The notes under the pieces: model-generated
Database searches by the model: none
The model's input: only the letters and a program-made list of their open reading frames with translations
Told to the model about the DNA's origin: nothing
Shown: positions 29,375-43,256 of the stretch, piece by piece
How positions within the stretch are numbered: the stretch's first letter is position 1
How the letters are laid out: every line of letters begins with the position of its first letter
Origin: a virus
Strand: one strand, 5' to 3'
DNA length: 64,000 nucleotides
IMG/VR virus record: IMGVR_UViG_3300042924_004713
Span: 32,001-96,000 of that record
Position numbers and translations under genes: made by a program

Positions 29375-30397
29375 ATGCATTACTTGCTGATTGACACTGC
29401 CAACATGTTTTTCCGAGCTCGACATGTGGCACACAGAGCCAGTTCCACTGAAGAAAAAGTTGGTTATGCTCTACACATCACCCTGGCTGCTATCAATAAG
29501 GTAGCCAAGAAATTCAATGCTGATCACGTGGTGTTTGCATTGGAGGGACGGTCGTGGCGCAAAGACTTCTACGCTCCCTACAAGAAAAACCGTGCTGTGG
29601 CTCGTGCTGCGCTCACAGAAGCAGAAGCCGAAGAAGATCGAGTGTTTTGGGAAACCTATGATCACTTTACTAAATACCTAGAGCAGGGCACAAACTGTTC
29701 GGTCATACGTCACCCTGAAGCAGAAGCTGACGATATCATTGCTAGATGGATACATCTGCATCCCCAGGATCATCACACTATTGTCAGCAGTGACACTGAT
29801 TTTGTGCAACTCATCGCCCCTAATGTAAATCAATTCAATGGTATTCAAGACGAGTTGATCACACTAGAAGGTGTGTTTGATGCACGTGGTCGTGAAGTCG
29901 TAGATAAAAAAACCAAACAACCTAAACGTATCCCCGACCCAGAGTGGTTATTGTTTGAAAAATGCATGCGAGGCGATGCATCTGACAATGTGTTCTCTGC
30001 ATATCCAGGTGTTCGTGTCAAGGGCACAAAAAACAAAGTAGGATTAATGGAAGCATTTGAAGATCGCCATGCACGTGGTTATGCATGGAACAATCTGATG
30101 TTGCAAAGGTGGACAGATCATGATGGTCAAGAACATCGTGTGTTAGATGACTACATTCGCAACAAACAACTTATTGACCTCACAGCTCAGCCTGACGAAG
30201 TCAAGTATAAAGTTGACTCAGCTATTCGTGAACAGGTTTCGCACAAAGACATTGGACAAGTAGGTGTGCGATTCATGAAGTTCTGTGGTAAGTTTGATTT
30301 GCAAAAAATCAGCGAACAGGCAGAACAGTATGCACAATGGTTGAATACAATATACCAAGGAGTATTGAATGATAATAGCCAAGCCCGTAGTACCTGA
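29375..30397 (+). CDS. rnh: RNase H / 5'-3' exonuclease (T4 rnh-like)
   Basis: LIDTAN, SWRK..Y..YK.NR, EADDII, SSDTDFVQL, GDASDN. Confidence 0.92.
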   Translation: MHYLLIDTANMFFRARHVAHRASSTEEKVGYALHITLAAINKVAKKFNADHVVFALEGRSWRKDFYAPYKKNRAVARAALTEAEAEEDRVFWETYDHFTKYLEQGTNCSVIRHPEAEADDIIARWIHLHPQDHHTIVSSDTDFVQLIAPNVNQFNGIQDELITLEGVFDARGREVVDKKTKQPKRIPDPEWLLFEKCMRGDASDNVFSAYPGVRVKGTKNKVGLMEAFEDRHARGYAWNNLMLQRWTDHDGQEHRVLDDYIRNKQLIDLTAQPDEVKYKVDSAIREQVSHKDIGQVGVRFMKFCGKFDLQKISEQAEQYAQWLNTIYQGVLNDNSQARST

Positions 30398-30803
30398 TCG
30401 TTTTTGGATACTAAAACAAAACGACGAAAAGGTCGGAAACATTCAGGCCACTGCTAATGGATACACAGTTAAAATTCTAGATCAAGTTGAGATCTACAAA
30501 AGTGTTCGCACAATCAAACAACGTGTGGGCATTGACTTTGAACCAGCTGTTAAGACCAACAAAAAGCCTCAGAATCAAGTACATGGATTTGAAACTGGTT
30601 GTAATGCATACAACGGCATCTATGAAGTGCGTAGGCAGTTACCACTGTTTACCAAAACTCGCAAGAGCAAGAGTTGGTATGCAGCTGGATGGTATAAGGT
30701 AATGCAGAATCGCACATGGCGTGTGGTACGCAATCCAAAACTGATCACACTGCAACGCTATCCCTATCATGGCCCTTTTCACAGTGAACAGGAAGCACAA
30801 TGA
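30369..30803 (+). CDS. Hypothetical protein
   Basis: 144 aa, AAGGAG SD. Confidence 0.65.
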   Translation: MIIAKPVVPDRFWILKQNDEKVGNIQATANGYTVKILDQVEIYKSVRTIKQRVGIDFEPAVKTNKKPQNQVHGFETGCNAYNGIYEVRRQLPLFTKTRKSKSWYAAGWYKVMQNRTWRVVRNPKLITLQRYPYHGPFHSEQEAQ

Positions 30804-31006
30804 GCATGCACATCAATCGCTTTGTGGACAGGATCAAAGCACATGAAAGTCGTGCGGCCAAGGACTTTGTTATGACCATGCAGGATGCAAGGGATCTGCA
30901 TGCTGACATTACCAAGCTCTTGATGCAGCTACAAGCCGCTGCTGAACAAAAGAATTCTCAAAGCGAAGTCATAAACATCGAAGTCACTGGTGGTGGCTTT
31001 AAATAA
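30800..31006 (+). CDS. Hypothetical protein
   Basis: 68-aa coupled ORF. Confidence 0.6.
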   Translation: MSMHINRFVDRIKAHESRAAKDFVMTMQDARDLHADITKLLMQLQAAAEQKNSQSEVINIEVTGGGFK

Positions 31007-31055
31007 AAACTACATGGTTTTTGGCATAAATATTGAATTGAAGTAAGGAGATGCT

Positions 31056-31376
31056 GTGTCTAGACCCAAGCCAAAAATCCTAGTAGAACTCACAGATAAA
31101 AATACCTATCGTACAGAACAAGTGCTGGCCAGCGAGGGTATCTGGGCTGTGTTTTTTGATGGCGCTCCTATCAATCTCAAAACTGCCAACATGTTGCAGC
31201 AGTTTCCTGGTCCCAAATACAAAAAGGTCAGCTTTAGCAATCCCGGACATGCAATCAACTTGGCCAAAAAGCTGAATAGCCAATTTCGTACCAACAAATT
31301 CACCGTGGTGTTGCTACGTGCTGGAGATCAAGTGTATCCTCCGGTCACTGGAACCTCCAGTGAATCGCAAAGCTGA
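31056..31376 (+). CDS. Hypothetical protein
   Basis: GTG start, GGAG SD, CATAAATA upstream. Confidence 0.65.
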   Translation: MSRPKPKILVELTDKNTYRTEQVLASEGIWAVFFDGAPINLKTANMLQQFPGPKYKKVSFSNPGHAINLAKKLNSQFRTNKFTVVLLRAGDQVYPPVTGTSSESQS

Positions 31377-31722
31377 AATCACTCGTAGAGTATTAGATCT
31401 GCTGCCTGAGCCAGATCGTGTGCCTTTTGAAGTTGCCATGAACACCTGGTGGCGTAATCTTAGAAACAAAGGTGGTTTGTCGCTGACCGATCTAGGACTA
31501 CGTGTGTTCAAAGAGCAAGCAGAATTGGAGTGTCATGAATTTGTGATACCACGAGATCAGCCCATATCGCAAGGTAGCCTGTTGAGATTGGATCGTGGAC
31601 AACAGTGGCCATATCACTTGGATAAAAAGAGACGTATTACCTTTTTTGGCAGCAGAGAAGCCATGATGATGGCGCTGTACGGTAATTTTTCTAACTACGT
31701 ATACAGATTATCAGAACGTTAG
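31360..31722 (+). CDS. Hypothetical protein
   Basis: ~120-aa ORF. Confidence 0.6.
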   Translation: MNRKAEITRRVLDLLPEPDRVPFEVAMNTWWRNLRNKGGLSLTDLGLRVFKEQAELECHEFVIPRDQPISQGSLLRLDRGQQWPYHLDKKRRITFFGSREAMMMALYGNFSNYVYRLSER

Positions 31723-31792
31723 CAAAACAACAACTCTTGCATCTTTGTTAAGAAATTTGGCGAAATGTCTGTTGTTTTTTTCAAAAACTAGG

Positions 31793-31821
31793 TTGACCTG
31801 GTATAAATAAAAATGTAAAAT
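31793..31821 (+). promoter_or_regulatory. Sigma70 promoter with an embedded TATAAATA late promoter
   Basis: TTGACC-N17-TAAAAT; TATAAATA at 31802-31809. Confidence 0.75.
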
Positions 31822-31828
31822 AGATGCT

Positions 31829-31954
31829 ATGATGACTTCAATACTTTCATTATCCGCGATGCACAAATGTCCCACACAGAGTGGCCTATCAACATGGCTC
31901 CAGTTTGGGTATACCCGTGCGATCAAGATTAATGATAGTGGGGGGTCCAAGTAG
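31829..31954 (+). CDS. Putative attenuator leader peptide (41 aa, leaderless start)
   Basis: MMTSILSLSAMHKCPTQSGLSTWLQFGYTRAIKINDSGGSK*; ATG at the predicted TSS; stop codon inside the antiterminator arm. Confidence 0.6.
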   Translation: MMTSILSLSAMHKCPTQSGLSTWLQFGYTRAIKINDSGGSK

Positions 31955-31990
31955 ATCAAGCATCAAGCAACATGCGTCTACTAGGGCCCT
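31942..31990 (+). promoter_or_regulatory. Antiterminator hairpin
   Basis: GGGGTCCAAGTAGA pairs with TCTACTAGGGCCCT at 13 of 14 positions; overlaps the terminator 5' arm. Confidence 0.65.
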
Positions 31991-32022
31991 GGAAGTAAAA
32001 ACTCCAGGGCTTTTTGTTTTTT
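31986..32022 (+). terminator. Intrinsic terminator (attenuator)
   Basis: GCCCTGGA/TCCAGGGC stem followed by TTTTTGTTTTTT. Confidence 0.85.
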
Positions 32023-32031
32023 AAGGGAAAA

Positions 32032-32187
32032 ATGAAAGAAAATAACGATGAAAAACTTTTGCATCAGCTCAAGGAGCACGTACTAACAGCAGAACAATTG
32101 GCCGAACTTATTGAAGCCAAGCTGGAACGAGCTAGGCTGATGCAACAAGGCTTTAGACAGTTACAACTCGCAAAAAACGTGTTATAA
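32032..32187 (+). CDS. Small helical protein directly after the attenuator
   Basis: 51 aa MKENNDEKLLHQLKEH...AKNVL; AAGGG SD. Confidence 0.55.
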   Translation: MKENNDEKLLHQLKEHVLTAEQLAELIEAKLERARLMQQGFRQLQLAKNVL

Positions 32188-32194
32188 TTGTTGA

Positions 32195-32313
32195 GTGTTT
32201 AAGGTAACGAGGACCAGTGATTCACTAAAAATCACAAACGGGCGGACAGTACACATGAAAACCCTGGCGGCAACGAGGTGAGTAAGACTACTGGTTGGGG
32301 TGTCGACCCCAAC
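32195..32313 (+). ncRNA. Candidate structured RNA
   Basis: Non-coding; stems GTGATT/AATCAC, CAGTA/TACTG, GTTGGGGT/ACCCCAAC. Confidence 0.4.
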
Positions 32314-32319
32314 ATATGG

Positions 32320-32348
32320 TTGACCAATATTTGGCGTTTGTTTATAAT
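32320..32348 (+). promoter_or_regulatory. Sigma70 promoter
   Basis: TTGACC-N17-TATAAT. Confidence 0.75.
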
Positions 32349-32361
32349 GCTCAATGTTGGG

Positions 32362-32464
32362 ACCATATTGAAGCACACTAAGCCGAAGGGCGCACGACGG
32401 GTGGTAATGCTGTCCGATGCCGACAGTGAGGCGGTTCGAATCCCCTAGTGTGTTTCAATATGGT
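32362..32464 (+). repeat. 19-bp inverted-repeat cassette A enclosing a tRNA T-arm-like segment
   Basis: ACCATATTGAAGCACACTA ... TAGTGTGTTTCAATATGGT; loop contains GGTTCGAATCC. Confidence 0.75.
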
Positions 32465-32469
32465 TTTGA

Positions 32470-32668
32470 ATCCCGCAGTCCCTTCTGCGTTATTAAAGGG
32501 GGTGGTTGGCGTCACCACAATGCCAGGGCTCATACGATGAAAGCCTCAGAACCCGCAGACATGGGTGCCAGAAAAATCGTAGGTGGGTATCACGCCTAGC
32601 CAGAAGTAAGTGTGATGGACAGAGTAACAGCTCAGTCAGGGGCTTGAGGGATCAAGTGGCCTGACACC
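32470..32668 (+). ncRNA. Candidate ~200-nt ncRNA, copy 1
   Basis: 3' module TGGACAGAGTAAC..CTC..GTCAGGGGC..GTGGCCTGAC shared with 33140-33193. Confidence 0.5.
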
Positions 32669-32718
32669 TAACTACAAGGAGAGTCCATTATGGACAGTGA
32701 CAAGAGTGGTAAGATGAA

Positions 32719-32794
32719 GGAGCTATAGTCAAACGGTTAAGACAGCGGACTTTTAATCCGTCAGGTCAGGGTTCGAATCCCTGTGGCTCCACCA
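32719..32794 (+). tRNA. tRNA-Lys(TTT)
   Basis: Cloverleaf, loop CTTTTAA, encoded CCA. Confidence 0.95.
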
Positions 32795-32876
32795 TATAAA
32801 AACACATTCGAACACATATAGGCGGCCGGCGCTAGGGAAATCTTTACGGAGTTCCTGGAATGTGTTTCTATATGGT
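32791..32876 (+). repeat. 19-bp inverted-repeat cassette B beginning at the tRNA-Lys ACCA end
   Basis: ACCATATAAAAACACATTC ... GAATGTGTTTCTATATGGT. Confidence 0.75.
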
Positions 32877-32904
32877 TGACCAATTAAATTCTTTTTGTTA
32901 TACT
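32876..32904 (+). promoter_or_regulatory. Sigma70 promoter
   Basis: TTGACC-N17-TATACT. Confidence 0.75.
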
Positions 32905-32923
32905 AGACAAAATACAATACAGC

Positions 32924-33000
32924 GGCGGAGGGGAGAAACGGTTTACTCGTTGGTCTCATAAGCCAAAGACATCAGGTTCGATTCCTGTTCTCCGCAACCA
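32924..33000 (+). tRNA. tRNA-Met(CAT), initiator-like
   Basis: Loop CTCATAA, 1:72 mismatch, CCA. Confidence 0.85.
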
Positions 33001-33195
33001 GTTCCGGTTACTACTTTCCTGAAAGTAGGGGGCGCCACACCATAGTTAGGCCGGTTGGCTAGGCTACCGTTAGCGCAATGCAGAGCAGAGCACCTAGATA
33101 TGCGGACAAAACCGCTAGCACGAGACGCTGAAACAAATGTGGACAGGGTAACCACTCCAGGATAGGGGCGACTGTGGAAAAGCGTGGCCTAACCA
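33001..33195 (+). ncRNA. Candidate ~200-nt ncRNA, copy 2
   Basis: 3' module TGGACAGGGTAAC..CTC..GATAGGGGC..GTGGCCTAAC. Confidence 0.5.
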
Positions 33196-33313
33196 AGATT
33201 TAAAATAAAACAGAAGTGAGCGATCTGTCTCTGAAAAGAGTTTAGCAAGGGTTGATGCGGTATCACAGCTTCGGCATCTGTAACAGCGATTCCTTGTTAG
33301 TTCTCGATTTTAT

Positions 33314-33388
33314 GCACGGTTCGTCTATCGGTTAGGACACAGCCCTTTCAAGGCTGGAAGACGGGTTCGATTCCCGTACCGTGTACCA
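33314..33388 (+). tRNA. tRNA-Glu(TTC)
   Basis: Cloverleaf, loop CTTTCAA, CCA. Confidence 0.95.
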
Positions 33389-33390
33389 AA

Positions 33391-33587
33391 CGTTCCAGCG
33401 TCACTGGATACTCTGGTCCCGGAGGATGAGAAGTGTGGTGACACACACGGGCGGTACACTTCTAGCCTAAAGTGCGCTGGCAATGCGAGAACGGTCCCGG
33501 TCGTGGAGCGGGTGGAGGCTGTGTGTGATGGTGCTAGGACTACTTGGTGCTTGATGCAGTATAATTACCGCCGCGGGACGCAGAGCA
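33391..33587 (+). ncRNA. Candidate GC-rich structured RNA
   Basis: Non-coding; stems TCCAG/CTGGA, GTGTG/CACAC, GCGGGTGG/TTACCGC-like, closing GTCCCG/CGGGAC. Confidence 0.45.
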
Positions 33588-33597
33588 TTTTTAGATT

Positions 33598-33749
33598 ATA
33601 ACAGCAAGTGCTGATACAGGTAGCGTGACAGGACGCTGTCACTATGCGGGCTCTCCCGGCCGGGGACGGGTCCTGACATAACTGGCCTCGGCTTTGACCT
33701 TGTTAGCGCAAGACGTCTAAATTGGCATTATCTCAGCACTTGCTATTAT
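33598..33749 (+). ncRNA. Long hairpin cassette C with a GC-rich internal domain
   Basis: ATAACAGCAAGTGCTGA ... TCAGCACTTGCTATTAT (16/17 bp); inner GTGACAG/CTGTCAC. Confidence 0.5.
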
Positions 33750-33755
33750 GATCTT

Positions 33756-33830
33756 GGTCTCAAAGTGTTCATGGACGCACGTAGGCCTGTCACGCCTAAA
33801 GAAGGGGATCGTTACCCCTTGGGACCGCCA
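33756..33830 (+). tRNA. tRNA-Asp(GTC)
   Basis: Loop CTGTCAC; atypical T-loop ATCGTTA. Confidence 0.9.
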
Positions 33831-33848
33831 AAAACAGTAAATACAGGC

Positions 33849-34094
33849 ATGAAAGAACTACTGAAAAATCTACCGCAGATTCTCAGTGCCCTGCCTGAAA
33901 TCGTAAAATATTTGAAATATCTGCCTGTGATTATGTTGCTGGCTGGTATTGGGTTTGGTGTTTACTATGCTGTGGAAAATAAAAAAGATCCATATGTGTG
34001 TGTAAACAACCATGTGTTTGAGCAACTGCGTGTGGACAGTGATGTCTATGTATTCAAAGGTGGCACCTGCGTGGATGCCAAAGATCTAAAATAA
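33849..34094 (+). CDS. Small membrane protein
   Basis: TAAATA-N5-ATG start; one transmembrane helix. Confidence 0.65.
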   Translation: MKELLKNLPQILSALPEIVKYLKYLPVIMLLAGIGFGVYYAVENKKDPYVCVNNHVFEQLRVDSDVYVFKGGTCVDAKDLK

Positions 34095-34100
34095 ATTTCA

Positions 34101-34193
34101 GGGTGTCTTGTAGCTATGGCGTGTGCTACACCGGACTGTAAATCCGGTCCCTCGTGGTAAACATTCGCGGTTCGAATCCGTGGACACCCACCA
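34101..34193 (+). tRNA. tRNA-Tyr(GTA)
   Basis: Loop CTGTAAA, long variable arm, CCA. Confidence 0.9.
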
Positions 34194-34200
34194 GTGTTAT

Positions 34201-34276
34201 TCCAGCGTAGCTCAGAGGTAGAAGCAGCGGACTGTTAATCCGTTTGTCGTTGGTTCGATCCCAACCGCTGGAGCCA
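34201..34276 (+). tRNA. tRNA-Asn(GTT)
   Basis: Loop CTGTTAA, GCCA end. Confidence 0.95.
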
Positions 34277-34281
34277 ATCAA

Positions 34282-34356
34282 GGGCTGATAGTGATAGCGA
34301 GAGCACACTCGGTTTGCACCCGAGAGGTCGGGGTTTGACTCCCCGTCGGTCCACCA
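34282..34356 (+). tRNA. tRNA-Ala(TGC)
   Basis: Loop TTTGCAC, G3:U70, CCA. Confidence 0.9.
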
Positions 34357-34371
34357 AACAAGGAGAAAATA

Positions 34372-34626
34372 ATGTTGAGAGATTACACACCCAAGATAGC
34401 CAAGGCTGATCTTGAACATGGTGCATATTACACAGGTAGTTGCCGTAATGCCAGCGTAGCTCGTTGGGATAGTAATAAACAATGCTTTGTGCATTGGCGT
34501 TCGAAGTTTGGCGATAGGTTTCTTGAAGAAATACGTCATCCTGAAGATGACTCTGTGTTTGATGTTTTTGTAGTAGAAAGCAAGATTACTCATCCAGTGG
34601 AAGAAATACCACTAGATAGGATTTAA
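34372..34626 (+). CDS. Hypothetical protein
   Basis: 84 aa, AAGGAG SD. Confidence 0.7.
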   Translation: MLRDYTPKIAKADLEHGAYYTGSCRNASVARWDSNKQCFVHWRSKFGDRFLEEIRHPEDDSVFDVFVVESKITHPVEEIPLDRI

Positions 34627-34627
34627 T

Positions 34628-34703
34628 GGTGTCCGTAGTGTAGTGGTCTGCACGGGTGTCTGTGGAACACTCAGCGTCGGTTCAATCCCGATCGGATACC
34701 CCA
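34628..34703 (+). tRNA. tRNA-His(GTG)
   Basis: Loop CTGTGGA, G-1:C73, CCA. Confidence 0.9.
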
Positions 34704-34705
34704 AT

Positions 34706-34783
34706 GCATCGGTACCAGAGCGGCCTAATGGCGGAGTCTGCAAAACTCTCGATTCGCTGGTTCAAATCCAGCCCGATGCTCCA
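34706..34783 (+). tRNA. tRNA-Cys(GCA)
   Basis: Loop CTGCAAA, U73, CCA. Confidence 0.92.
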
Positions 34784-34790
34784 AACATAT

Positions 34791-34868
34791 ACCGCTTTAG
34801 CTCAGTTGGATTAGAGCATTGGCCTACGAAGCCAAGGGTCGGGGGTTCGAGTCCCTCAGGCGGTACCA
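34791..34868 (+). tRNA. tRNA-Arg(ACG)
   Basis: Loop CTACGAA, CCA. Confidence 0.92.
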
Positions 34869-34877
34869 TAAAGTTAT

Positions 34878-34951
34878 TCCGGTGTGGTGTAATGGCAGCG
34901 CGGCGGTCTCCAAAACCGTTAGTGGGGGTTCGATTCCCTCCACCGGAGCCA
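34878..34951 (+). tRNA. tRNA-Trp(CCA)
   Basis: Loop CTCCAAA, GCCA end. Confidence 0.92.
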
Positions 34952-34955
34952 AATT

Positions 34956-35029
34956 GGTCAGTTAGCTCAAAGGTAGAGCACACGGCTGATAACCGTGAGA
35001 CACTGGATCGTTACCAGTACTGACTACCA
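34956..35029 (+). tRNA. tRNA-Ile(GAT)
   Basis: Loop CTGATAA; atypical T-loop ATCGTTA. Confidence 0.9.
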
Positions 35030-35033
35030 TGAT

Positions 35034-35110
35034 GGCGATGTAGCATAGTTGGTCAATGCAGCCGCTTCATACGCGGAAGATCGGGGGCTCGAATCCCTCC
35101 ATCGCTACCA
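35034..35110 (+). tRNA. tRNA-Met(CAT), elongator (Ile2 not excluded)
   Basis: Loop TTCATAC, CCA. Confidence 0.85.
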
Positions 35111-35111
35111 T

Positions 35112-35187
35112 GCTGATATAGCTCATTAGGTAGAGCACCGCCTTGGTAAGGCGGAGGTGACCAGTTCGATTCTGGTTATCAGCACCA
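35112..35187 (+). tRNA. tRNA-Thr(GGT)
   Basis: Loop TTGGTAA, CCA. Confidence 0.95.
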
Positions 35188-35191
35188 AAAA

Positions 35192-35279
35192 GGAAGTGTG
35201 CCAGAGAGGTCTATTGGAGCAGTCTTGAAAACTGTCGTATCGCAAGGTACCGTGAGTTCGAATCCCACCACTTCCGCCA
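35192..35279 (+). tRNA. tRNA-Ser(TGA)
   Basis: Loop CTTGAAA, long variable arm, GCCA. Confidence 0.93.
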
Positions 35280-35316
35280 AATATTTTCTAAAAGCATAGT
35301 GCATACTAACTAAACA

Positions 35317-35433
35317 ATGCGCCCGCTTTTATTTTTTATCTGTTGTATTCCTTTGGTCTGGTACTGGATGTGGCTAGCTCGACGTGTGCCACCCATGCCA
35401 GATCAAGAAGAAGACGACAACCGGCCCCGTTAG
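35317..35433 (+). CDS. Small membrane peptide whose stop lies inside tRNA-Thr
   Basis: MRPLLFFICCIPLVWYWMWLARRVPPMPDQEEDDNRPR*. Confidence 0.45.
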   Translation: MRPLLFFICCIPLVWYWMWLARRVPPMPDQEEDDNRPR

Positions 35434-35497
35434 TTAAACGGTATAACACTTGATTTGTAATCATGGATCGGCAGTTCGATTCTGTCACGGGGCACCA
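35424..35497 (+). tRNA. tRNA-Thr(TGT)
   Basis: Loop TTTGTAA, CCA. Confidence 0.9.
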
Positions 35498-35542
35498 GTT
35501 TTCACTTGATCTAAAATACTATTTGCAGTATACTACTAACAT

Positions 35543-35634
35543 GGAGCGTTGGCCGAGTGGTCGAAGGCAGCGGTTTGCTAAACCGTCGTATTGAGAAATC
35601 AGTACCATTAGTTCGAATCTAATACGCTCCGCCA
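35543..35634 (+). tRNA. tRNA-Ser(GCT)
   Basis: Loop TTGCTAA, long arm; promoter TTGATC-N17-TATACT at 35506-35534. Confidence 0.93.
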
Positions 35635-35654
35635 TTTTTTTTTTGAGGTCTAAC

Positions 35655-35843
35655 ATGAAAACTTTGAATCTAGTTCTTCCACTGATCGTACTATTGTTTT
35701 GTGTGGCTGGTATGATTACCGGTTACGGTGCCAACAACATGGCAGCAGTGTATGCAAATGTCACTGCGATGTTTGGCTGGGGCATAGTGGCCATGGATGC
35801 ATGGCGTGAATACAAACAACGGGCTGACTCTGGCGACCTTTAA
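35655..35843 (+). CDS. Small two-helix membrane protein
   Basis: 62 aa, GAGG SD. Confidence 0.6.
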   Translation: MKTLNLVLPLIVLLFCVAGMITGYGANNMAAVYANVTAMFGWGIVAMDAWREYKQRADSGDL

Positions 35844-35892
35844 TCCTTCCAACGGATAGAGTAGCAGGTTCAATTCCTGTCAAGGCCCGCCA
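35821..35892 (+). pseudogene. Degenerate tRNA-like element
   Basis: T-arm GCAGGTTCAATTCCTGT and GCCA end intact; D-arm and acceptor stem broken. Confidence 0.5.
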
Positions 35893-35898
35893 TATAAT

Positions 35899-35973
35899 CG
35901 GTCCGTAGCTCAGCGGAAGAGTTCTGGTCTTCGAAACCAGCTGTCGGGAGTTCGAATCTCTCCGGACCGGCCA
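35899..35973 (+). tRNA. tRNA-Arg(TCG)
   Basis: Loop CTTCGAA, GCCA end. Confidence 0.92.
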
Positions 35974-35990
35974 ACTTAAAAGGATTTATT

Positions 35991-36458
35991 GTGCCACGTA
36001 TCGACGTAGATGAAATAAAACAATTTGTAGACAACTGTGGCCCAGGTACTCGTGTATATCTCGGTGCTGATAGTATTAGATATAGAGAAAAAAACATATG
36101 GTACGCTGAATACACTGTTGCGGTTGTGATACACATCAATGGCAACAACGGTTGCAAGATCTTTGGCGAGATCACAAGAGAACGTGACTATGACCACAAG
36201 CTCAGCAAACCTGCCATGCGGTTAATGAATGAAGTATATCGTGTTAGTGAGATGTTTCAGAGGCTAGCACCAGTAATGGGTGACTTTCCAGTTGAAGTAC
36301 ATCTGGATATCAATCCCAATGAAGCACACGGTAGTAGTTGTGTAGTTGGTCAGGCCATTGGCTACATTCGCGGTACTTGTAATGTGATTCCTTTGGTAAA
36401 GCCAAAGGCATTTGCAGCAAGCTATGCAGCAGACAGAATTGCCAATGGAGCATTATAG
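35991..36458 (+). CDS. RNase H-like YkuK (DUF458) family protein
   Basis: VYLGADS, RLMNEV, EVHLDIN, KPKAFAASYAAD. Confidence 0.8.
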   Translation: MPRIDVDEIKQFVDNCGPGTRVYLGADSIRYREKNIWYAEYTVAVVIHINGNNGCKIFGEITRERDYDHKLSKPAMRLMNEVYRVSEMFQRLAPVMGDFPVEVHLDINPNEAHGSSCVVGQAIGYIRGTCNVIPLVKPKAFAASYAADRIANGAL

Positions 36459-36464
36459 ATCTAA

Positions 36465-36539
36465 GCGGCTATGGCGTAGTTGGTAACGCATGTGCTTGCC
36501 AAGCATAAGTCACCGGATCGTACCCGGTTAGCCGCTCCA
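36465..36539 (+). tRNA. tRNA-Gly(GCC)
   Basis: Loop TTGCCAA; atypical T-loop ATCGTAC. Confidence 0.9.
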
Positions 36540-36545
36540 GTAGTT

Positions 36546-36621
36546 GCGGGCGTAGCTCAGTTGGTAGAGCATTTGCCTTCCAAGCAAAATGTCGAGAGTT
36601 CGAACCTCTTCGCCCGCTCCA
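36546..36621 (+). tRNA. tRNA-Gly(TCC)
   Basis: Loop CTTCCAA, TCCA end. Confidence 0.95.
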
Positions 36622-36627
36622 GTATTA

Positions 36628-36702
36628 CCGACCGTCGTTCAATGGATAGGACATGGAGCTTCTACCTCCAGAATGTGGGTTCGATTCCTGCCGGTCGGGC
36701 CA
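36628..36702 (+). tRNA. tRNA-Arg(TCT)
   Basis: Loop CTTCTAC, GCCA end. Confidence 0.92.
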
Positions 36703-36718
36703 GTATAAAGGAAATATT

Positions 36719-36868
36719 ATGCCAATGTATGAAACCACTGTGAAGACTCCGCAGGGAGAAACCAAAGATCGTGTATGGGCAAAAGATTTACAAGAAGCAC
36801 GGCAACTGTTTGAACAGCGTCATGGTCCAAGGAATGTGCCTTATATTCCCAAGATCATACCAAGTTAG
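36719..36868 (+). CDS. Hypothetical protein
   Basis: 49 aa, AAGGA SD. Confidence 0.6.
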   Translation: MPMYETTVKTPQGETKDRVWAKDLQEARQLFEQRHGPRNVPYIPKIIPS

Positions 36869-36874
36869 TACTAT

Positions 36875-36950
36875 TGGGGATTCGCCAAGTTGGTAAGGCA
36901 GCGGATTTTGATTCCGCCATGCGGGGGTTCGAGTCCCTCATCCCCTACCA
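36875..36950 (+). tRNA. tRNA-Gln(TTG)
   Basis: Loop TTTTGAT, CCA. Confidence 0.92.
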
Positions 36951-37032
36951 TATAACCAGGAGACCAATCATGGGGCAATCGTTGTGATAGTTATGATGGT
37001 AGCATTGATTTATGTAATAGACCGGCAGTAAC

Positions 37033-37110
37033 CTCGGTGTAGCGCAGTCTGGGTAGCGCATCTGCTTTGGGAGCAGAGGGTCGGGAGTTCGAATCTCTCC
37101 ACCGAGACCA
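37033..37110 (+). tRNA. tRNA-Pro(TGG)
   Basis: Loop TTTGGGA, CCA. Confidence 0.95.
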
Positions 37111-37123
37111 ATTAAATACAAGC

Positions 37124-37360
37124 ATGTTGGTTGATCGTCATGCTTTTGTGTACACGGCCACTGTGCCGTGGCCCGCTGGAATCGTACCACAGCTGGACTG
37201 GATTCAAGGCGTTGAACTTGTGGAGTCCTGGCTGCAGACTCATGTTGGCAAACACTATGTGACCTGGGCCTGGAATGACAGTAAATCCTCATATCAACTA
37301 GGTGTGGCATTCAAGTGGGATCAAGATAGATCAATTTTTGTATTAACCTGGGCCCGTTAG
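37124..37360 (+). CDS. Hypothetical protein (stop inside tRNA-Val)
   Basis: TAAATA-N5-ATG; 78 aa. Confidence 0.6.
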   Translation: MLVDRHAFVYTATVPWPAGIVPQLDWIQGVELVESWLQTHVGKHYVTWAWNDSKSSYQLGVAFKWDQDRSIFVLTWAR

Positions 37361-37424
37361 TTTAATGGTAGAACTCCGTCTTTACACGGCGGTTACGGCA
37401 GTTCGATTCTGTCACGGGCTACCA
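37351..37424 (+). tRNA. tRNA-Val(TAC)
   Basis: Loop TTTACAC, CCA. Confidence 0.9.
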
Positions 37425-37426
37425 AG

Positions 37427-37502
37427 GCCGACTAAGCTAATCTAGTGAAAGCATGTGTCTGAAGAACACGAGAGCCTGGAGCGTAACCAGGAGTCGGCAC
37501 CA
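37427..37502 (+). tRNA. tRNA-Phe(GAA)
   Basis: Loop CTGAAGA; atypical T-loop AGCGTAA. Confidence 0.85.
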
Positions 37503-37565
37503 TTTCCTTGGCAAAATATAGAATAAATGTTGCAGTGCAATAAATATCCTATATACAAAAAGGAA

Positions 37566-37739
37566 ATGACCATGTCGCAGCTTATAACACATATATTAGA
37601 ACGTTTGAGTGAAATGTTTCCCGAAGAAAGCTATCAGAGTCGTCTGGAAAACTACATCATCAGTAGAGATCCAAAGACTGCTTCGGACATTGAAAAGTTT
37701 GAAAGAGAATTCACCTACGGTTCTAATAGGACTCTTTGA
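37566..37739 (+). CDS. Hypothetical protein (DUF3563-like)
   Basis: LERLSEMF..YQSRLENYI..DIE. Confidence 0.55.
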   Translation: MTMSQLITHILERLSEMFPEESYQSRLENYIISRDPKTASDIEKFEREFTYGSNRTL

Positions 37740-37834
37740 TATGTGGCATCGTATCATAAGCGCAGTTATTGATTATCGTCAACGCCAGGCAGATCTATAT
37801 CTGCGCTGCTTAATTTCAACAATTTAAAAACAAA

Positions 37835-37914
37835 GCCCCGGTGGTGGAATGGTAGACACGCTAGTCTTAGGAACTAGTCTTCGGGTGCGAGTTCGAGTCT
37901 CGCCTGGGGCACCA
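37835..37914 (+). tRNA. tRNA-Leu(TAG)
   Basis: Loop CTTAGGA, short variable arm, CCA. Confidence 0.92.
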
Positions 37915-37921
37915 TAATTCT

Positions 37922-37998
37922 GCGGATGTGACGGAACAGGTATACGTATCGGACTTAAAATCCGAGTTTTGAGGGTTCGAGTCCCTCCATCCGTACCA
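37922..37998 (+). tRNA. tRNA-Leu(TAA)
   Basis: Loop CTTAAAA, no long variable arm, CCA. Confidence 0.9.
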
Positions 37999-38008
37999 AG
38001 GAGTCAAC

Positions 38009-38383
38009 ATGAAAATTCTAGATCAAGATTTTAGATTTGAATGGTTTAGTTCCACTGGTGGCGGTGGACAACATCGCAACAAACATCAGAACTGTTGTCG
38101 TTGTATCCATGTGCCCACTGGCATACAGGCCAATGGCACTTCAAGTCGCAGCAGAGAAGACAATCGCAAGAATGCTCTAGCAGTGTGTCGTGCTAGAGTA
38201 CAACGACATTTTCACAAGGATACCGAACGTTATCGTGCTTCCAATGAACGTGTACGCACATATCATGAAGTAGACAATCGAGTGTATGATCATGCTTCGG
38301 GCTTGACTGACACCTATCAAAATGTCATTGTCAAGGGCAATGTTGACAAACTGATTCAAGCCCGAGCACAAGCTGTAAAATAA
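38009..38383 (+). CDS. Peptidyl-tRNA hydrolase-domain / release-factor-like protein (GGQ)
   Basis: SSTGGGGQHRNK...HVPTGI...SRSREDNR...VRTY; lacks the codon-recognition domains. Confidence 0.85.
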   Translation: MKILDQDFRFEWFSSTGGGGQHRNKHQNCCRCIHVPTGIQANGTSSRSREDNRKNALAVCRARVQRHFHKDTERYRASNERVRTYHEVDNRVYDHASGLTDTYQNVIVKGNVDKLIQARAQAVK

Positions 38384-38384
38384 A

Positions 38385-38463
38385 CTCCCTGTGGCTCAGT
38401 CTGGTCTAGAGTGCTGGTCTGGGGGACCAGAGATCGCTGGTTCGAATCCAGCCAGGGAGACCA
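38385..38463 (+). tRNA. tRNA-Pro(GGG)
   Basis: Loop CTGGGGG, CCA. Confidence 0.92.
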
Positions 38464-38466
38464 AAT

Positions 38467-38545
38467 GCCCCCATGGACAAATTGGCAAAGTCGGCTCTCT
38501 CAAAAGGAGCAGTTGTTCTCCGTTCGAATCGGAGTGGGGGTACCA
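38467..38545 (+). tRNA. tRNA-Leu(CAA)
   Basis: Loop CTCAAAA, short variable region, CCA. Confidence 0.88.
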
Positions 38546-38567
38546 AAGAAAAACCCGCCGAAGCGGG
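38546..38567 (-). terminator. Terminator of pqqA (possibly bidirectional)
   Basis: CCCGC-TTCG-GCGGG plus T-tract on the minus strand. Confidence 0.75.
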
Positions 38568-38589
38568 CTGTCTTGATCACTAACAACTA

Positions 38590-38664
38590 TTAGCGATTAG
38601 CGATATACATGGTGATTTCAAAACCAAAACGCATATCTTGTGCTGAAGGTGTAGTCCATGCCAT
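38590..38664 (-). CDS. pqqA: PQQ precursor peptide PqqA (not in the ORF track)
   Basis: MAWTTPSAQDMRFGFEITMYIANR*, W..P....R.GFE.T.Y pattern with ExxxY; AAGGAG SD; own terminator. Confidence 0.92.
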   Translation of the reverse strand: MAWTTPSAQDMRFGFEITMYIANR

Positions 38665-38796
38665 GTTAGTTCTCCTTTGATAAAATTAACATACTGCATT
38701 AGTATGTAGCTCTATTATATGGCACAGGTCATGCTGAATCTTGCGTAATCTGCACAATTATGTATAGTGATTTTCATTAAACTTTAAGGAACCAGT

Positions 38797-39324
38797 ATGC
38801 CTTGGATTCAAAACATTTCATTGAGTGAAGTAATTAGGGGACACCACTACGATCCAGGTGTAAATTCCATGCTGATACAGATAGTGGATCCCGGTGTAGA
38901 GTTTCCTGAGCCCAAATACACATTCAAGGAGCGGCATCAGTTCTTTTTTCTAGACATTGAAGCTACGGATCGTAGCATAGATGAATCCTGGCGTTGTAGT
39001 CCTGAGCAGGCCAAGCAACTAGTAGAGTGCCTGCAACACGCCTTGGCTAATTCCATGAACGTGGTTGTGCATTGCCATGCTGGAGTGTGTCGTAGCGGTG
39101 CTGTTGCAGAAGTTGGAGTACTCATGGGTTTCCAGGATACCGAAGACTTTCGCAGTCCCAATCTCTTGGTCAAGCATCTAATGATGGAAAGTCTTGGCCT
39201 GGGATATGATCCTGAGGAAAAGCACAGCATCAATGGCGTGGCTTTAGCAGAGGATTGGACCACGGACAATGAAAAGGTTTTTATTTTGGCAGATGCCAAA
39301 AAGCAACGTAGGTTGACCAAATAG
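38797..39324 (+). CDS. Protein tyrosine/dual-specificity phosphatase-like protein
   Basis: VHCHAGVCRS (CX5R). Confidence 0.85.
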   Translation: MPWIQNISLSEVIRGHHYDPGVNSMLIQIVDPGVEFPEPKYTFKERHQFFFLDIEATDRSIDESWRCSPEQAKQLVECLQHALANSMNVVVHCHAGVCRSGAVAEVGVLMGFQDTEDFRSPNLLVKHLMMESLGLGYDPEEKHSINGVALAEDWTTDNEKVFILADAKKQRRLTK

Positions 39325-39366
39325 TCCGTTGCTGTTATACTACACAATTAAAGAAAGGAGGGCCTA

Positions 39367-39930
39367 ATGCCTGCTGTTTGGTTAGTGAGTGACACACATT
39401 TTGGTCACGAAAAAACCTGCACGGTGTTCAAGCGAGCAGATGGCTCGCCACTGAGACCATTTACCAGTGCAGAAGAAATGGACGATGAAATGGTACGCCG
39501 CTGGAACGAACGTGTGAGACCCAACGACAAAGTGTATCACCTGGGTGATGTTGTGATTAATCGCAAGGCTCTTAAGACCATGGCACGCCTTAATGGTGAC
39601 AAGGTTCTTATTCGTGGAAATCATGATATCTTTCGTGATGACGAATACCGTGAATACTTTCGTGAACTACGTGCTTATCATGTGATGAACGGAATGATCC
39701 TTAGCCATATTCCAATTCACGAAGAAAGCCTGGCAAGATTTGGTACCAACATACACGGACACCTGCATGCCAATCGAGTCATGAAGAACAACGAGATTGA
39801 TGCTAGGTATCACTGCGTGTGTGTGGAGCATACAGACTTTGCACCCATACTGTTTGAAGATGTTATCAAGCGCATCACAGCAGAAGGTGGCACTATTGGC
39901 TTTCGTAATGGTAACCACGGCGTGAGTTAA
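39367..39930 (+). CDS. Calcineurin-like metallophosphoesterase
   Basis: SDTHFGH, HLGD, GNHD, HGHLH; promoter at 39313-39341. Confidence 0.9.
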   Translation: MPAVWLVSDTHFGHEKTCTVFKRADGSPLRPFTSAEEMDDEMVRRWNERVRPNDKVYHLGDVVINRKALKTMARLNGDKVLIRGNHDIFRDDEYREYFRELRAYHVMNGMILSHIPIHEESLARFGTNIHGHLHANRVMKNNEIDARYHCVCVEHTDFAPILFEDVIKRITAEGGTIGFRNGNHGVS

Positions 39931-39968
39931 ACACAGCCACAATGGTAAATAGTGTTTTAGGACACTAT

Positions 39969-40268
39969 ATGAGAACCATTGTGGCTTGCATTGCCCTGTT
40001 GACAGCAGTGGTATCTCACGCTGAAACAGTACAATCAATCTTGATCTGCGAGAGCTGGCCAGTGGTCAGAGAAGTTATTAACAACAGTGCTGAACGGCCG
40101 TTGTTACGCGGCGTATCAAATCGTGGAATCAATAACGAACTAGTTCAATTTGAAACCATTATTTTTGTCAACCCAGACTCAGGTAGTTTTACTGTGGTAG
40201 AACGCTGGAACGATGAACTGTTTTGTGTGGTGCAATCGGGCGTGAACATGCACACCTATTCTAAATAA
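39969..40268 (+). CDS. Exported hypothetical protein
   Basis: Signal peptide ...AVVSHA. Confidence 0.6.
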   Translation: MRTIVACIALLTAVVSHAETVQSILICESWPVVREVINNSAERPLLRGVSNRGINNELVQFETIIFVNPDSGSFTVVERWNDELFCVVQSGVNMHTYSK

Positions 40269-40321
40269 CACTTCAAATACCTAGGGTTGACATTAGCCCA
40301 AATTTAGTGTATACTCATTGC

Positions 40322-41323
40322 ATGCATAACCAAGATCTGCTAACTTCCTATGGCATAAACCAATCTATGTATCAACAGGTACTAGATCATATGTTCCCAC
40401 TTGACATCTATGAGTACGCAAGTAGAAAAGCCTATCTAGCAGAACGAACCAATCCCAATCGTGATCCAGGCTACGATATTCGCAATCAACAAGCATGGCA
40501 ACGTAGCTATGAAAACATCAAAGATCCCAGCTGGCCTGACTGCGCGACCCCAGATCACTTTGCAAACCTTCCACTACACATTCAACAGGAATGTATCACC
40601 CAACACGGCTTCAGCGCCGACATCTGGTTAGATCCCAATATACCTTTTGAAAAATTCCAAAGAGACCCAACCTGGCAACTTGATGCATTTGATATAGTGA
40701 GACTCAAGCTCGCATTGGTGGATAACCTTGACTCAATCAAACACAGAAAAATCATAGACTTTGGCACACATATTGGCTTGCTAGGCACTGTGTGTTTGCA
40801 CAATGATGCCGAGCACGTGATAGTCACCAACATCAAAAGTGATTGTCTAAGCATCGCTGATGAAATGCTGGCACTGAACAATCCACTGCGCCATCGTTTT
40901 CGTGCAGTGCTGAGTAACATAAACGATCTAGGAGAAACCGAAGCCTTGTGTTATGATCGCGACACAGTGATATTAGCAGCGATCATGAACATTGTTACTG
41001 ATCACTTTGGTATCATGCGTGCTATCACTCGGTCTAGACCCAAAACAATTATCATACAAAACTGGAATCCTCCTGTGATTGCCGCCCATCCAGTGCCACT
41101 GGTTTATTGGTGGTTGGAAGATGCCACTGTGGCCTGGAAAGGCTTTCATCCCACTGACATGGAAACTCGAGTGGGATGCCCAAACAAAGCTTGGTTTGAT
41201 ACCATACTGGGTGATTTTGGTTATCAGTTAAGCAAGTACACCCTGACCGACATCTCCAGTCCTTTTGCTGCGCTGTCACAGCATCAATTTGAATTCATGA
41301 CCTTGGTGTATGAGCTCAAATAA
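40322..41323 (+). CDS. Methyltransferase-fold protein
   Basis: IIDFGTHIG motif-I-like; promoter TTGACA-N17-TATACT 6 nt before the ATG. Confidence 0.6.
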   Translation: MHNQDLLTSYGINQSMYQQVLDHMFPLDIYEYASRKAYLAERTNPNRDPGYDIRNQQAWQRSYENIKDPSWPDCATPDHFANLPLHIQQECITQHGFSADIWLDPNIPFEKFQRDPTWQLDAFDIVRLKLALVDNLDSIKHRKIIDFGTHIGLLGTVCLHNDAEHVIVTNIKSDCLSIADEMLALNNPLRHRFRAVLSNINDLGETEALCYDRDTVILAAIMNIVTDHFGIMRAITRSRPKTIIIQNWNPPVIAAHPVPLVYWWLEDATVAWKGFHPTDMETRVGCPNKAWFDTILGDFGYQLSKYTLTDISSPFAALSQHQFEFMTLVYELK

Positions 41324-42857
41324 ACGAACCATTGTGATAGCCAGCTTGCCCTATCAAACTCCGGGATGGCCTGCCACGGCTCCTGCGTTGCTCAGTGCCT
41401 GTCTCAACAAAGCAGGAATCAGTGCAGTGCCAGTGGACCTGGCAGCTGAATTTGTGGCTGACTTTGTGGACAAATGCTACTGGCCAGAACTACTGTTCTA
41501 TATTAGTCAGGGTCCTAATCCAGATCGCAAACTGCCAAGACGTGTGTTTATTGATATACTAAAATGGAATAGACGCAAACTCTTGCAGATCAAACGCGAC
41601 TATGATCCAGACATCATGGGTTTGAGTGTGTTCAGTGTGATGAGTGAAACCTATCTTACCTTGATGTGCTACAGTATTAGAAGGTGGTTGCCGGGCGTAA
41701 AAATACTAGCAGGTGGTCGAGGTCTAGAAATTCTCACACAGGGAGAATACACCGGTGATACACATGCCACTGGCAGCAGAGCACGTTGGCTTGTTGAACA
41801 AGGCATGATTGACTGTGCTGTTACTGGAGATGCAGAAAGCTTTATAATCGACGTAATCAAACAAGACTTATATGGAGTTGTAGATTCACCGCCGCAGACA
41901 TCTGCTGATTTAAATCAGGTTCCTATACCAGACTGGGACAATTATGATTTTGATCTATATCAAAGATTTAATCCATCAGATCGTTATCTACTGATCACAG
42001 ACAGCAAAGGTTGTGTGCGTCGATGCACATTCTGTGATGTTGAGCATCTATGGCCCCGGTATATTTTTAAAGATGGCGAGCTCTTGGCAAAAGAAATGAT
42101 TGAAAGTTATCATCGCACTGGTATTGACTTTTTTAGATTCAGTGGTAACTTGATAAACGGTAGTATACCAAACTATCGCAAAATGAATCAGTATCTAGCT
42201 GATCACTTGCCTCGTACTCTACGCTACAGTGGTTACGCTATATTTCGTGGCAGAGAAAATCAGCCACCTAAAGATTTTGAACTAGCAGGACGTGCAGGTT
42301 GCCTTGAATGGATCATTGGTGTTGAAAGTGGCAGTGAACGCATACGATATGACATGCGCAAGAAGTTCAGTAACGCAGACATAGACTACACTGCCAATCA
42401 ACTACACGACAATGGTATCAACCAGGTATGGTTATTCATGGCTGGCTACCCCATGGAAACCGAAGAAGACTTTGAACAAACGCTTAACCTACTGCGCAAA
42501 TATCGCCATTGGGCCCGAGATGGTAGTTTGCGTGTGGCAATTTCATCGCCATTTACGCTGGGTGATCAAGTGCCATTGACCAATGATGACCGACTACGCA
42601 ACTACTATCACTTTGAACGTGAGCAAGTGGTCAAAGGTTGGAGTCATATTTTTTGGCACACACCAACCAATCCAGACAACACATATGAAACACGTTTTCA
42701 CCGTTATAGAAGATTTCTAGAACTGCAACAGGAACTGGGTTTTGGAGACCGTGACGGGCAAGAAGCAGATCGTATGTTAAGAGAACAGCAGGAAGTATAT
42801 GAACAATATCTTGAAGCCAAAAAATCTAAAAAAACTTTCGCTATACGCAAGATCTAA
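41310..42857 (+). CDS. B12-binding radical SAM protein
   Basis: KILAGG, GDAE, SKGCVRRCTFC, GVESGSE, GYPMETEEDF. Confidence 0.88.
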   Translation: MSSNKRTIVIASLPYQTPGWPATAPALLSACLNKAGISAVPVDLAAEFVADFVDKCYWPELLFYISQGPNPDRKLPRRVFIDILKWNRRKLLQIKRDYDPDIMGLSVFSVMSETYLTLMCYSIRRWLPGVKILAGGRGLEILTQGEYTGDTHATGSRARWLVEQGMIDCAVTGDAESFIIDVIKQDLYGVVDSPPQTSADLNQVPIPDWDNYDFDLYQRFNPSDRYLLITDSKGCVRRCTFCDVEHLWPRYIFKDGELLAKEMIESYHRTGIDFFRFSGNLINGSIPNYRKMNQYLADHLPRTLRYSGYAIFRGRENQPPKDFELAGRAGCLEWIIGVESGSERIRYDMRKKFSNADIDYTANQLHDNGINQVWLFMAGYPMETEEDFEQTLNLLRKYRHWARDGSLRVAISSPFTLGDQVPLTNDDRLRNYYHFEREQVVKGWSHIFWHTPTNPDNTYETRFHRYRRFLELQQELGFGDRDGQEADRMLREQQEVYEQYLEAKKSKKTFAIRKI

Positions 42858-43215
42858 AGGCAATCCAGATGCTATTCAATGGCGAGTGCTGGGAGATCCC
42901 ATGCTTTCAGTTGTGATTGAACCCGGCCTAACAAGATTTGACTTTGAACACAATACCCAATCAATATCTAGCATAGGCATAGAAGTCATAGAAAGAACAG
43001 ACACAGAAAGCGCAGTCGTAGTTGAACTGATAGAACTGGGAGGAGAACCACTTAGAGATCTAGATCACTTTTGTGTATACCGATTACGCAAGGGTGGCAT
43101 CAAACGCAGTTATGGGTATCTTGACGAGCCCGGAGTGTGCATGTTCAAAATAAGATTTGACAGTGTTGCACACAACTTTTTGCTGTACAGCATGCAGGAT
43201 GTCAAGTATCAATGA
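42799..43215 (+). CDS. Hypothetical protein
   Basis: ORF downstream of the radical SAM gene; start uncertain. Confidence 0.5.
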   Translation: MNNILKPKNLKKLSLYARSKGNPDAIQWRVLGDPMLSVVIEPGLTRFDFEHNTQSISSIGIEVIERTDTESAVVVELIELGGEPLRDLDHFCVYRLRKGGIKRSYGYLDEPGVCMFKIRFDSVAHNFLLYSMQDVKYQ

Positions 43216-43256
43216 TAGATTTTACTTAAATACACAGCAGTTTACAGGAACAACAT

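Follow-up and report, generated by a model that had tools for sequence, protein, structure and literature searches.

Attenuators that respond to antibiotics have been found by Term-seq, among them Listeria lmo0919 and Bacillus vmlR and bmrCD. According to the cited account, stalling on the upstream open reading frame (uORF) of mycobacterial whiB7 leads to antitermination, and whiB7 is activated by knock-down of many amino-acid biosynthetic genes, transfer RNAs (tRNAs) and tRNA synthetases; the uORF's coding sequence sets the amino acids that are sensed and varies between species (PMC10274678). Mycobacterial polycysteine short open reading frames (ORFs), which are leaderless, are described as sensing cysteine through codon runs (10.1101/834739). 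Why phages carry large sets of tRNA genes, and how these sets are regulated, is a long-standing question, and the ideas put forward in the cited reports include codon compensation and escape from tRNA-targeting defences (PMC10264068, PMC11464382). Here we describe a cassette at the head of a viral tRNA island, at positions 31793-32187 of a 64,000-nucleotide (nt) stretch of the IMG/VR record IMGVR_UViG_3300042924_004713 (that whole stretch is called the window below). The cassette consists of a promoter, a short leader ORF and two overlapping hairpins, and we read it, with a probability of about 0.58, as a ribosome-mediated (leader-peptide) transcription attenuator responding to overall decoding speed; the ribosome on the leader would probably decide whether transcription runs on.

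Contigs of freshwater phages yielded 104 cassettes of this design, whose 62 distinct leader ORFs fall into 28 clusters (55% peptide identity). Relatives were reached by three routes: the gene upstream of the cassette together with the promoter pattern gave six lineages, homologues of the 51-amino-acid (aa) protein encoded immediately downstream gave five more, some of them in a different gene neighbourhood, and a DNA pattern made from the invariant terminator core brought in 75 viral contigs. DNA probes of 16 and 20 nt matched mostly unrelated contigs, an alignment of the 51-aa protein used as a query for related loci returned only known loci among the matches listed, and positions 31300-32700 found no match among the INPHARED phages by megablast or blastn. 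The cassette is absent from L049 and L050, where the upstream gene has only distant relatives (33% identity). In L050, an apparent permuted transfer-messenger RNA (tmRNA) at 3380-3636 stands in its place after the homologue of the upstream gene (31318-31722 in the window).

An initial annotation of the window had described a promoter with an ATG lacking a Shine-Dalgarno sequence, a 41-codon ORF that uses 18 amino acids but neither Glu nor Val, and a pair of mutually exclusive hairpins in the geometry of the trp, his and ilv attenuators. Promoter, start codon and ORF are present as described (Table 1), and all parts of the geometry that can be tested by sequence comparison held up. Sites of the form TTGACC-N17-TAnnnT number 11 in the window, where 0.7 would be expected, and every one is on the + strand; the wider pattern TTGAYN-N16-18-TAnnnT is present in 62 of 62 leader variants. 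The ATG at 31829 is found 7 nt past the -10 element; in all 62 variants this spacing is 6-10 nt and a Shine-Dalgarno sequence is absent. The promoter would place the start of transcription (+1) at or beside this ATG, so that the RNA is predicted to be a leaderless message for the 41-codon leader. The TATAAATA motif embedded in the promoter, to which the annotation had drawn attention, occurs at chance frequency in the window (2 sites, 1.8 expected) and carries no weight; as a T4-type late promoter it was dropped for want of enrichment.

The leader is kept as an open frame while its peptide drifts. None of the 62 variants in the 28 clusters has a broken frame; the chance of an open frame is 0.09-0.18 per lineage. 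The length varies from 29 to 50 codons (mode 41), the stop may be TAG, TAA or TGA, and insertions and deletions are multiples of three or are compensated. Peptide identity among the five main groups is 19-40%. Between groups, nonsynonymous divergence (dN) is 0.7-1.1 for the leader versus 0.08-0.25 for the adjacent 51-aa ORF, the leader evolving faster in most comparisons. This combination of an open frame and a drifting peptide has the signature expected where translation matters and the product does not. The uORF conservation for which the initial annotation had proposed a check in relatives was borne out, with open frame, promoter-adjacent start and the position of the stop at the hairpin kept across the variants: the stop codon is within the 5' arm of the antiterminator in 55 of 62 and 1-4 nt beyond it in 7 of 62. 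Two close lineages illustrate the rate of change. L005 and L006 share at least 95% identity upstream, except in one 40-nt window (87%), and 72-97% in most windows downstream; from +45 to +215 relative to the promoter, the stretch from leader to terminator, identity is 27-60%, and both retain the design. The leader-hairpin-terminator module of this pair resembles an exchanged or fast-evolving cassette in near-identical backbones.

The end of the leader is tied by base pairing to an intrinsic terminator that separates it from the first downstream gene. Positions 31942-55 and 31977-90 pair at 13 of 14 positions, two of them as G-U, and the resulting antiterminator shares 7 nt (GGGCCCT) with the terminator hairpin in the window and 7-10 nt across the sequences compared. 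The terminator alone has a folding energy of about -19.5 kcal/mol in the window; it was missed by a consensus scan because its loop has 9 nt, and its 12-nt T-rich run is followed by the Shine-Dalgarno sequence of the 51-aa ORF. Taken by itself, the window gives modest support for the antiterminator: upstream pairing of the terminator 5' arm gains -10.5 kcal/mol compared with -5.8 +/- 3.0 in shuffles, a gain matched by 27 of 400 shuffles (P about 0.07). The case becomes strong only with the relatives. The antiterminator's 3' arm ties up at least 3 nt of the terminator core CCCUGGA in all 62 variants, and the antiterminator differs from the terminator plus base hairpin by no more than 5 kcal/mol in 53 of 62 (median difference -1.8 kcal/mol over the 62, a slight preference for the antiterminator). 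The overlap and mutual exclusivity noted in the initial annotation were confirmed on these grounds. The core itself, CCCTGGA..TCCAGGG, does not vary among the 14 relatives aligned. Its invariance amid diverging surroundings in the 75 viral contigs is unusual for a terminator and exceeds what pairing needs.

Folding under simulated conditions of translation gave a consistent picture. When a ribosome mask extending up to 10 nt past the stop was applied, the terminator alone remained in 62 of 62 variants. In each of 12 lineages, untranslated RNA cut before the 3' arm of the terminator has a core that pairs upstream at a probability of about 1.0; in the complete RNA at equilibrium, the split between the two folds ranges from 0 to 1 depending on the lineage. 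As naked RNA pairs the core upstream, an anti-antiterminator appears to be lacking and ribosome-free RNA should read through, which implies that termination would need a ribosome at the end of the ORF. The only candidate for a 1:2 hairpin is a 4-bp pairing of GACU with GGUC, unchanged in six lineages, and its 5' partner GACU is absent from L058 and L062.

Covariation, a check that the initial annotation had proposed for both hairpins, was found in the antiterminator in a covariance-model alignment of 14 sequences, where the terminator core does not vary. Antiterminator cells are paired at 92.6% versus 82.6 +/- 1.5% in shuffles (0 of 500 reached this value), and partners slid out of register paired at 27-48%. 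Seven of the 14 antiterminator pairs are altered on both sides, a number reached by 3 of 500 shuffles, and 18 cells are altered on both sides (0 of 500); the covariation score is 0.352 versus 0.170, again reached by 0 of 500. Independent minimum-energy folds of each sequence yield the same helix. Individual lineages show how the pairing is preserved. L005 has a U-A pair where L060 has C-G, and the base helices of L058 and L062, though wholly different, are paired and contain the stop all the same. The outer helix of L051 is longer by a single base on either side, with pairing kept; its 5' insertion shifts the reading frame, and a new TGA 4 nt further on keeps the stop in the same arm.

The leaders do not contain a run of codons for any one amino acid; instead, 18-20 different residues appear in 39-42 codons. 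Among the first 12 leaders collected, 8 are complete, with all 20 amino acids among 39-42 residues, and each of the others has 18-19. The expected frequency of a complete set is 0.011 in real 41-residue windows of the phage's own proteins; composition predicts 0.01-0.018, and shuffled open frames give 0.001-0.07. In those 8 leaders all 20 residues are encountered within the first 33-37 codons (P 0.0009-0.004 each), so the diversity precedes the point where a ribosome would start to melt the antiterminator. Across the whole family 19 of 62 leaders are complete, in 11 of 28 clusters, where about 1% would be expected; the mean diversity z is +1.42 over 28 clusters, with 27 of them positive (P 6e-10). 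Single-copy Cys, His, Tyr, Val, Glu, Ile and Gln change position between groups, which suggests that completeness is maintained rather than inherited through fixed positions, and a pangram ancestor would stay complete in only about 1% of cases once 50-70% of its residues had been replaced. The leaders draw on 22-25 of the 28 phage tRNA species, compared with 18.3 +/- 1.9 in real gene windows. The proposal in the initial annotation that stalling at almost any codon could be sensed therefore stands on the enriched leaders of the relatives and their use of tRNA species, and not on the window's own leader, whose 18 of 20 amino acids are ordinary (P 0.34-0.49). Amino acids missing from a leader also tend to be without a tRNA gene in the 9 kb downstream (249/50 vs 9/12; Fisher P 7e-5), which is suggestive only of leader content tracking the tRNA repertoire.

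Table 1. Positions of the cassette and of other RNA features in the window.
Feature	Position	Strand	Details
Early-type sigma-70-like promoter	31793-31821	+	TTGACC (31793-98), 17-nt spacer, TAAAAT (31816-21)
Putative leaderless 41-codon leader ORF	31829-31954	+	No Shine-Dalgarno sequence; TAG stop at 31952-54
Antiterminator, 5' arm	31942-31956	+	Covers the last four codons and the stop codon
Antiterminator, 3' arm	31976-31990	+	Outer 7 nt (31984-90) double as the terminator 5' arm
Intrinsic terminator	31983-32022	+	Stem-loop 31983-32013, T-run 32011-32022
Shine-Dalgarno AAGGGA and 51-aa ORF	32023-32187	+	ATG at 32032, directly after the T-run; first predicted read-through cargo
Structured non-coding RNA (ncRNA)	32188-32319	+	Second predicted cargo; no conserved promoter of its own
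Next conserved promoter, TTGACC-N17-TATAAT	32320-32348	+	Conserved in relatives; ends the predicted read-through-dependent stretch
tRNA-Phe (anticodon GAA)	37427-37499		Rfam model match; overlooked by ARAGORN
Permuted (two-piece) tmRNA	44163-44612		Betaproteobacterial type, ANAANDEVFALAA tag

Conserved anatomy, covariation, energetics and diversity enrichment are seen in the sequences and support the attenuator reading; where transcription starts, that the ORF is translated, which way and how strongly the switch acts and what it senses in the cell are inferences. In RNA free of ribosomes, 31942-56 would pair with 31976-90 and sequester the terminator 5' arm, and polymerase would read through. 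A ribosome positioned at the last codons or the stop during synthesis of the terminator would hold the 5' arm of the antiterminator, so that the terminator could form and the transcript would end at about 32022. That the position of the ribosome would select the fold is a geometric argument only; on this geometry, slow, stalled or absent translation of approximately the first 36 codons should let polymerase continue into the 51-aa ORF, then the ncRNA at 32188-32319, and beyond them the tRNA array. Given a leader rich in diversity and without a run of control codons, the signal would most likely be overall decoding speed, in other words the supply of any charged tRNA. The further step, in which the leader acts as a pan-tRNA gauge and any decoding shortfall leads to read-through, has good grounds but is tentative, and we rate it somewhat below an even chance. 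Such shortfalls could come from starvation, from a mismatch in codon usage early in infection, or from cleavage of tRNAs by host anticodon nucleases; the output would comprise the small protein and the structured RNA, both conserved, together with extra transcripts of the tRNA array.

A number of observations weigh against an attenuator of this kind. Completeness is not universal, since some leaders have just 15-16 amino acids, and the window leader is without Glu and Val although the array has tRNA-Glu and tRNA-Val. The link between leaders and tRNA genes may be confounded by arrays cut at contig ends, by tRNAs that ARAGORN misses and by amino acids that are generally rare. The window itself favours the terminator state over the antiterminator by 3.9 kcal/mol, and the terminator has a free loop-side toehold, so that strand displacement could terminate transcription irrespective of the ribosome. 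The sequences showed no conserved hairpin, of either the pause or the anti-antiterminator kind, by which ribosome and polymerase would be synchronised. The 14-sequence alignment was fitted to the structure and is hence biased towards it, and in a MAFFT alignment of seven close sequences the helices are about 95% paired with covariation that is not significant, variation being low. The C-terminal half of the leader is also conserved at synonymous sites among close lineages, which indicates that constraints at the RNA level act there too. The 41-aa peptide has no homologue among 5.8 billion proteins, and no gene caller predicts the ORF. Finally, read-through may contribute little to the amount of tRNA made, as the tRNA genes are served by strong conserved promoters of their own.

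Other explanations share part of this evidence. It is unlikely, but deserves consideration, that the switch senses whether the leader is translated at all rather than the supply of tRNAs. Transcripts from the native promoter, with a 5'-terminal AUG, would be translated and only they would terminate; in transcripts arriving from upstream genes the AUG would be buried without a Shine-Dalgarno sequence, the antiterminator would form and polymerase would read through. In a variant of this idea, the switch would follow the capacity of the cell for leaderless initiation during infection. The folding of naked RNA into the antiterminator in all lineages, the lack of an anti-antiterminator, the start codon held at its fixed distance of 6-10 nt from the -10 element without a Shine-Dalgarno sequence in any variant, and the lack of a convincing terminator between the upstream gene and the promoter would all fit such a switch. 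However, it leaves unexplained why the diversity of amino acids and tRNAs is high despite the drift of the peptide, and why amino acids missing from the leaders track missing tRNA genes.

The cassette could also be an ordinary small-protein gene followed by a leaky terminator, with a hairpin that stabilises or processes the 3' end and with an overlap and a diversity that have no regulatory role. Leaky terminators are common inside phage operons, the ORF is conserved as an open frame, its ratio of nonsynonymous to synonymous substitution (dN/dS) is below 1 in most pairs, and Trp near 22-24 and Asp/Asn near 33-37 hold their positions. We nevertheless consider this quite unlikely, given a peptide that falls to 19-40% identity and outpaces the neighbouring small protein in most between-group comparisons, covariation in the very part of the helix that overlaps the terminator, near-isoenergetic folds in 53 of 62 variants, a stop that tracks the arm even after frameshifting indels, and a chance of about 1% per leader for all 20 amino acids. 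A structured RNA that is not translated, either a small RNA (sRNA) of about 195 nt whose end is the terminator or an antiterminator controlled by a ligand or protein, would make the frame incidental. The leader RNA does fold better than its shuffles (z -3.3), a repeat in the hairpin loop is conserved in four lineages, and substitutions are spread evenly over the three codon positions. These features are outweighed by a frame that stays open in 62 variants and 28 clusters with indels that keep or restore it, by helices predicted within the ORF that have almost no covariation (covariation term -0.69), by a loop that is not conserved in L005, L032, L058 and L062, and by the absence of a matching Rfam family, which together make this explanation highly improbable. 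The conserved hairpin loop was also considered as an sRNA seed and rejected, as no complementary site beyond chance was present in the window. A translated leader whose ribosome sets the choice between antiterminator and terminator is the reading that we prefer.

The cargo that such an attenuator would control directly is short. No promoter is present between the terminator and the 51-aa ORF; a -10-like TATAAT at 32183-88 is found only in the window and L006 and is not conserved. The conserved promoter at 32320 confines the direct cargo to the 51-aa ORF and the ncRNA, so the caution in the initial annotation that further promoters from 32320 onward limit what is gated was well placed. Same-strand tRNA arrays (Lys, Met, Glu, Asp etc.) are found downstream of the cassette wherever DNA is available, and the tRNAs would be gated only partly, read-through adding to transcription from their own promoters. 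The 51-aa protein has homologues in 18 clusters at 73-98% identity, with dN/dS of 0.13-0.3 in most pairs. It belongs to no Pfam or PHROG family (nor does the 41-aa leader peptide), and in the protein atlas its best score was 0.85 with no usable lead. A wider family of this protein, 50-57 residues in length with the core ..LT.EQ..LI..K.ERA.., is seen at loci L079, L084, L088, L117, L131 and L139.

The ncRNA is supported by 38 pairs in three helices, 8 of which are altered on both sides, and has no Rfam match; in many family members it adjoins the terminator with the small ORF absent between them. Contigs from RNA libraries of three studies lie on 32188-32319. These runs are stored as contigs, and none extends over 31793-32187, which is uninformative either way. 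Contigs from two studies run from the ncRNA (start 32203) upstream, one of them entering sequence that matches the end of the L005 51-aa ORF; at best, this hints weakly at co-transcription of the 51-aa ORF and the ncRNA. Two further structured regions lie downstream. Past the 32320 promoter, 32350-32470 and its counterparts in relatives form a long stem with conserved arms starting ACCATATTGAA and a variable cargo, which in the window is a tRNA-like piece with a GGTTCGAATCC T-loop. Metatranscriptome contigs (85-99% identity) cover another structured RNA, some 200 nt long and at 32478-32713, very deeply, up to several hundred deep in two runs; this RNA matches no Rfam family.

The contigs derive from metagenomes of lake water. 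The source record, from a giant phage, is 166 kb long and estimated as about 48% complete. The window encodes a family-B DNA polymerase and GroEL, and its RNA genes comprise 29 tRNA genes and the permuted tmRNA, whose betaproteobacterial type hints at a betaproteobacterial host. The relative L007 also has a permuted tmRNA. The full 20-amino-acid tRNA set attributed to this phage by the initial annotation is indeed covered once tRNA-Phe is included.

If the proposed mechanism is correct, it would be the first regulatory logic tied to phage tRNA genes, based on a leader rich in all amino acids and not in one. It would extend classical attenuation from a single amino acid to the whole decoding apparatus, and would give the phage a feedback loop, or a counter-defence trigger, for its translation capacity, a principle not known to have been described for tRNA genes. 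The 51-aa protein family and the covarying ncRNA would be the likely effectors. The locus also illustrates how a putatively functional 41-codon leaderless ORF was missed by all the gene callers behind public protein collections. The initial annotation knew of no described attenuator controlling a phage tRNA array; our literature search likewise found no published attenuator before phage tRNA genes, and no all-amino-acid leader. An Rfam cmscan of 30000-46000 at E values up to 1 returned only tRNA, tmRNA and chance hits, with nothing at 31793-32320, and the curated Rfam leader models do not match the phage cassette.

In overall design, the cassette resembles the E. coli trpL, hisL, pheL, leuL, thrL and ilv leaders, in which, too, a short ORF follows closely on the promoter, an intrinsic terminator precedes the first cargo, and an antiterminator shares nucleotides with the terminator 5' arm. 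In those leaders a ribosome at the end of the ORF causes termination and an upstream stall gives read-through, as proposed here. In the phage cassette the stop codon is 68 nt from the end of the T-run, about the distance seen in trpL. The phage leader differs from this class in having no single-amino-acid codon run but a maximised diversity, and in being a predicted leaderless message. It also has no 1:2 pause or anti-antiterminator hairpin, so untranslated RNA is predicted to read through, and a small protein, an ncRNA and a tRNA array take the place of biosynthetic enzymes as its predicted cargo. T-box riboswitches also make a terminator/antiterminator decision that reports tRNA charging, but they bind one specific uncharged tRNA directly and independently of translation, whereas the conserved feature here is an ORF; a T-box at this locus was rejected, with no Rfam hit at E values up to 1 and no specifier or T-box bulge. 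The lmo0919, vmlR and bmrCD attenuators have a short uORF without a codon run, on which any stall switches between terminator and antiterminator, as envisaged for the phage. Unlike the phage cassette, they respond to ribosome-targeting drugs, control resistance genes and are not known to be under selection for amino-acid diversity. The two closest systems in logic, as far as the cited accounts describe them, are the mycobacterial ones. The polycysteine short ORFs are leaderless, as the phage leader appears to be, but sense a single amino acid. The whiB7 uORF offers broad sensing of translation stress; it is enriched in alanine and controls a bacterial transcription factor, whereas the phage leader is enriched in diversity and heads a tRNA island.

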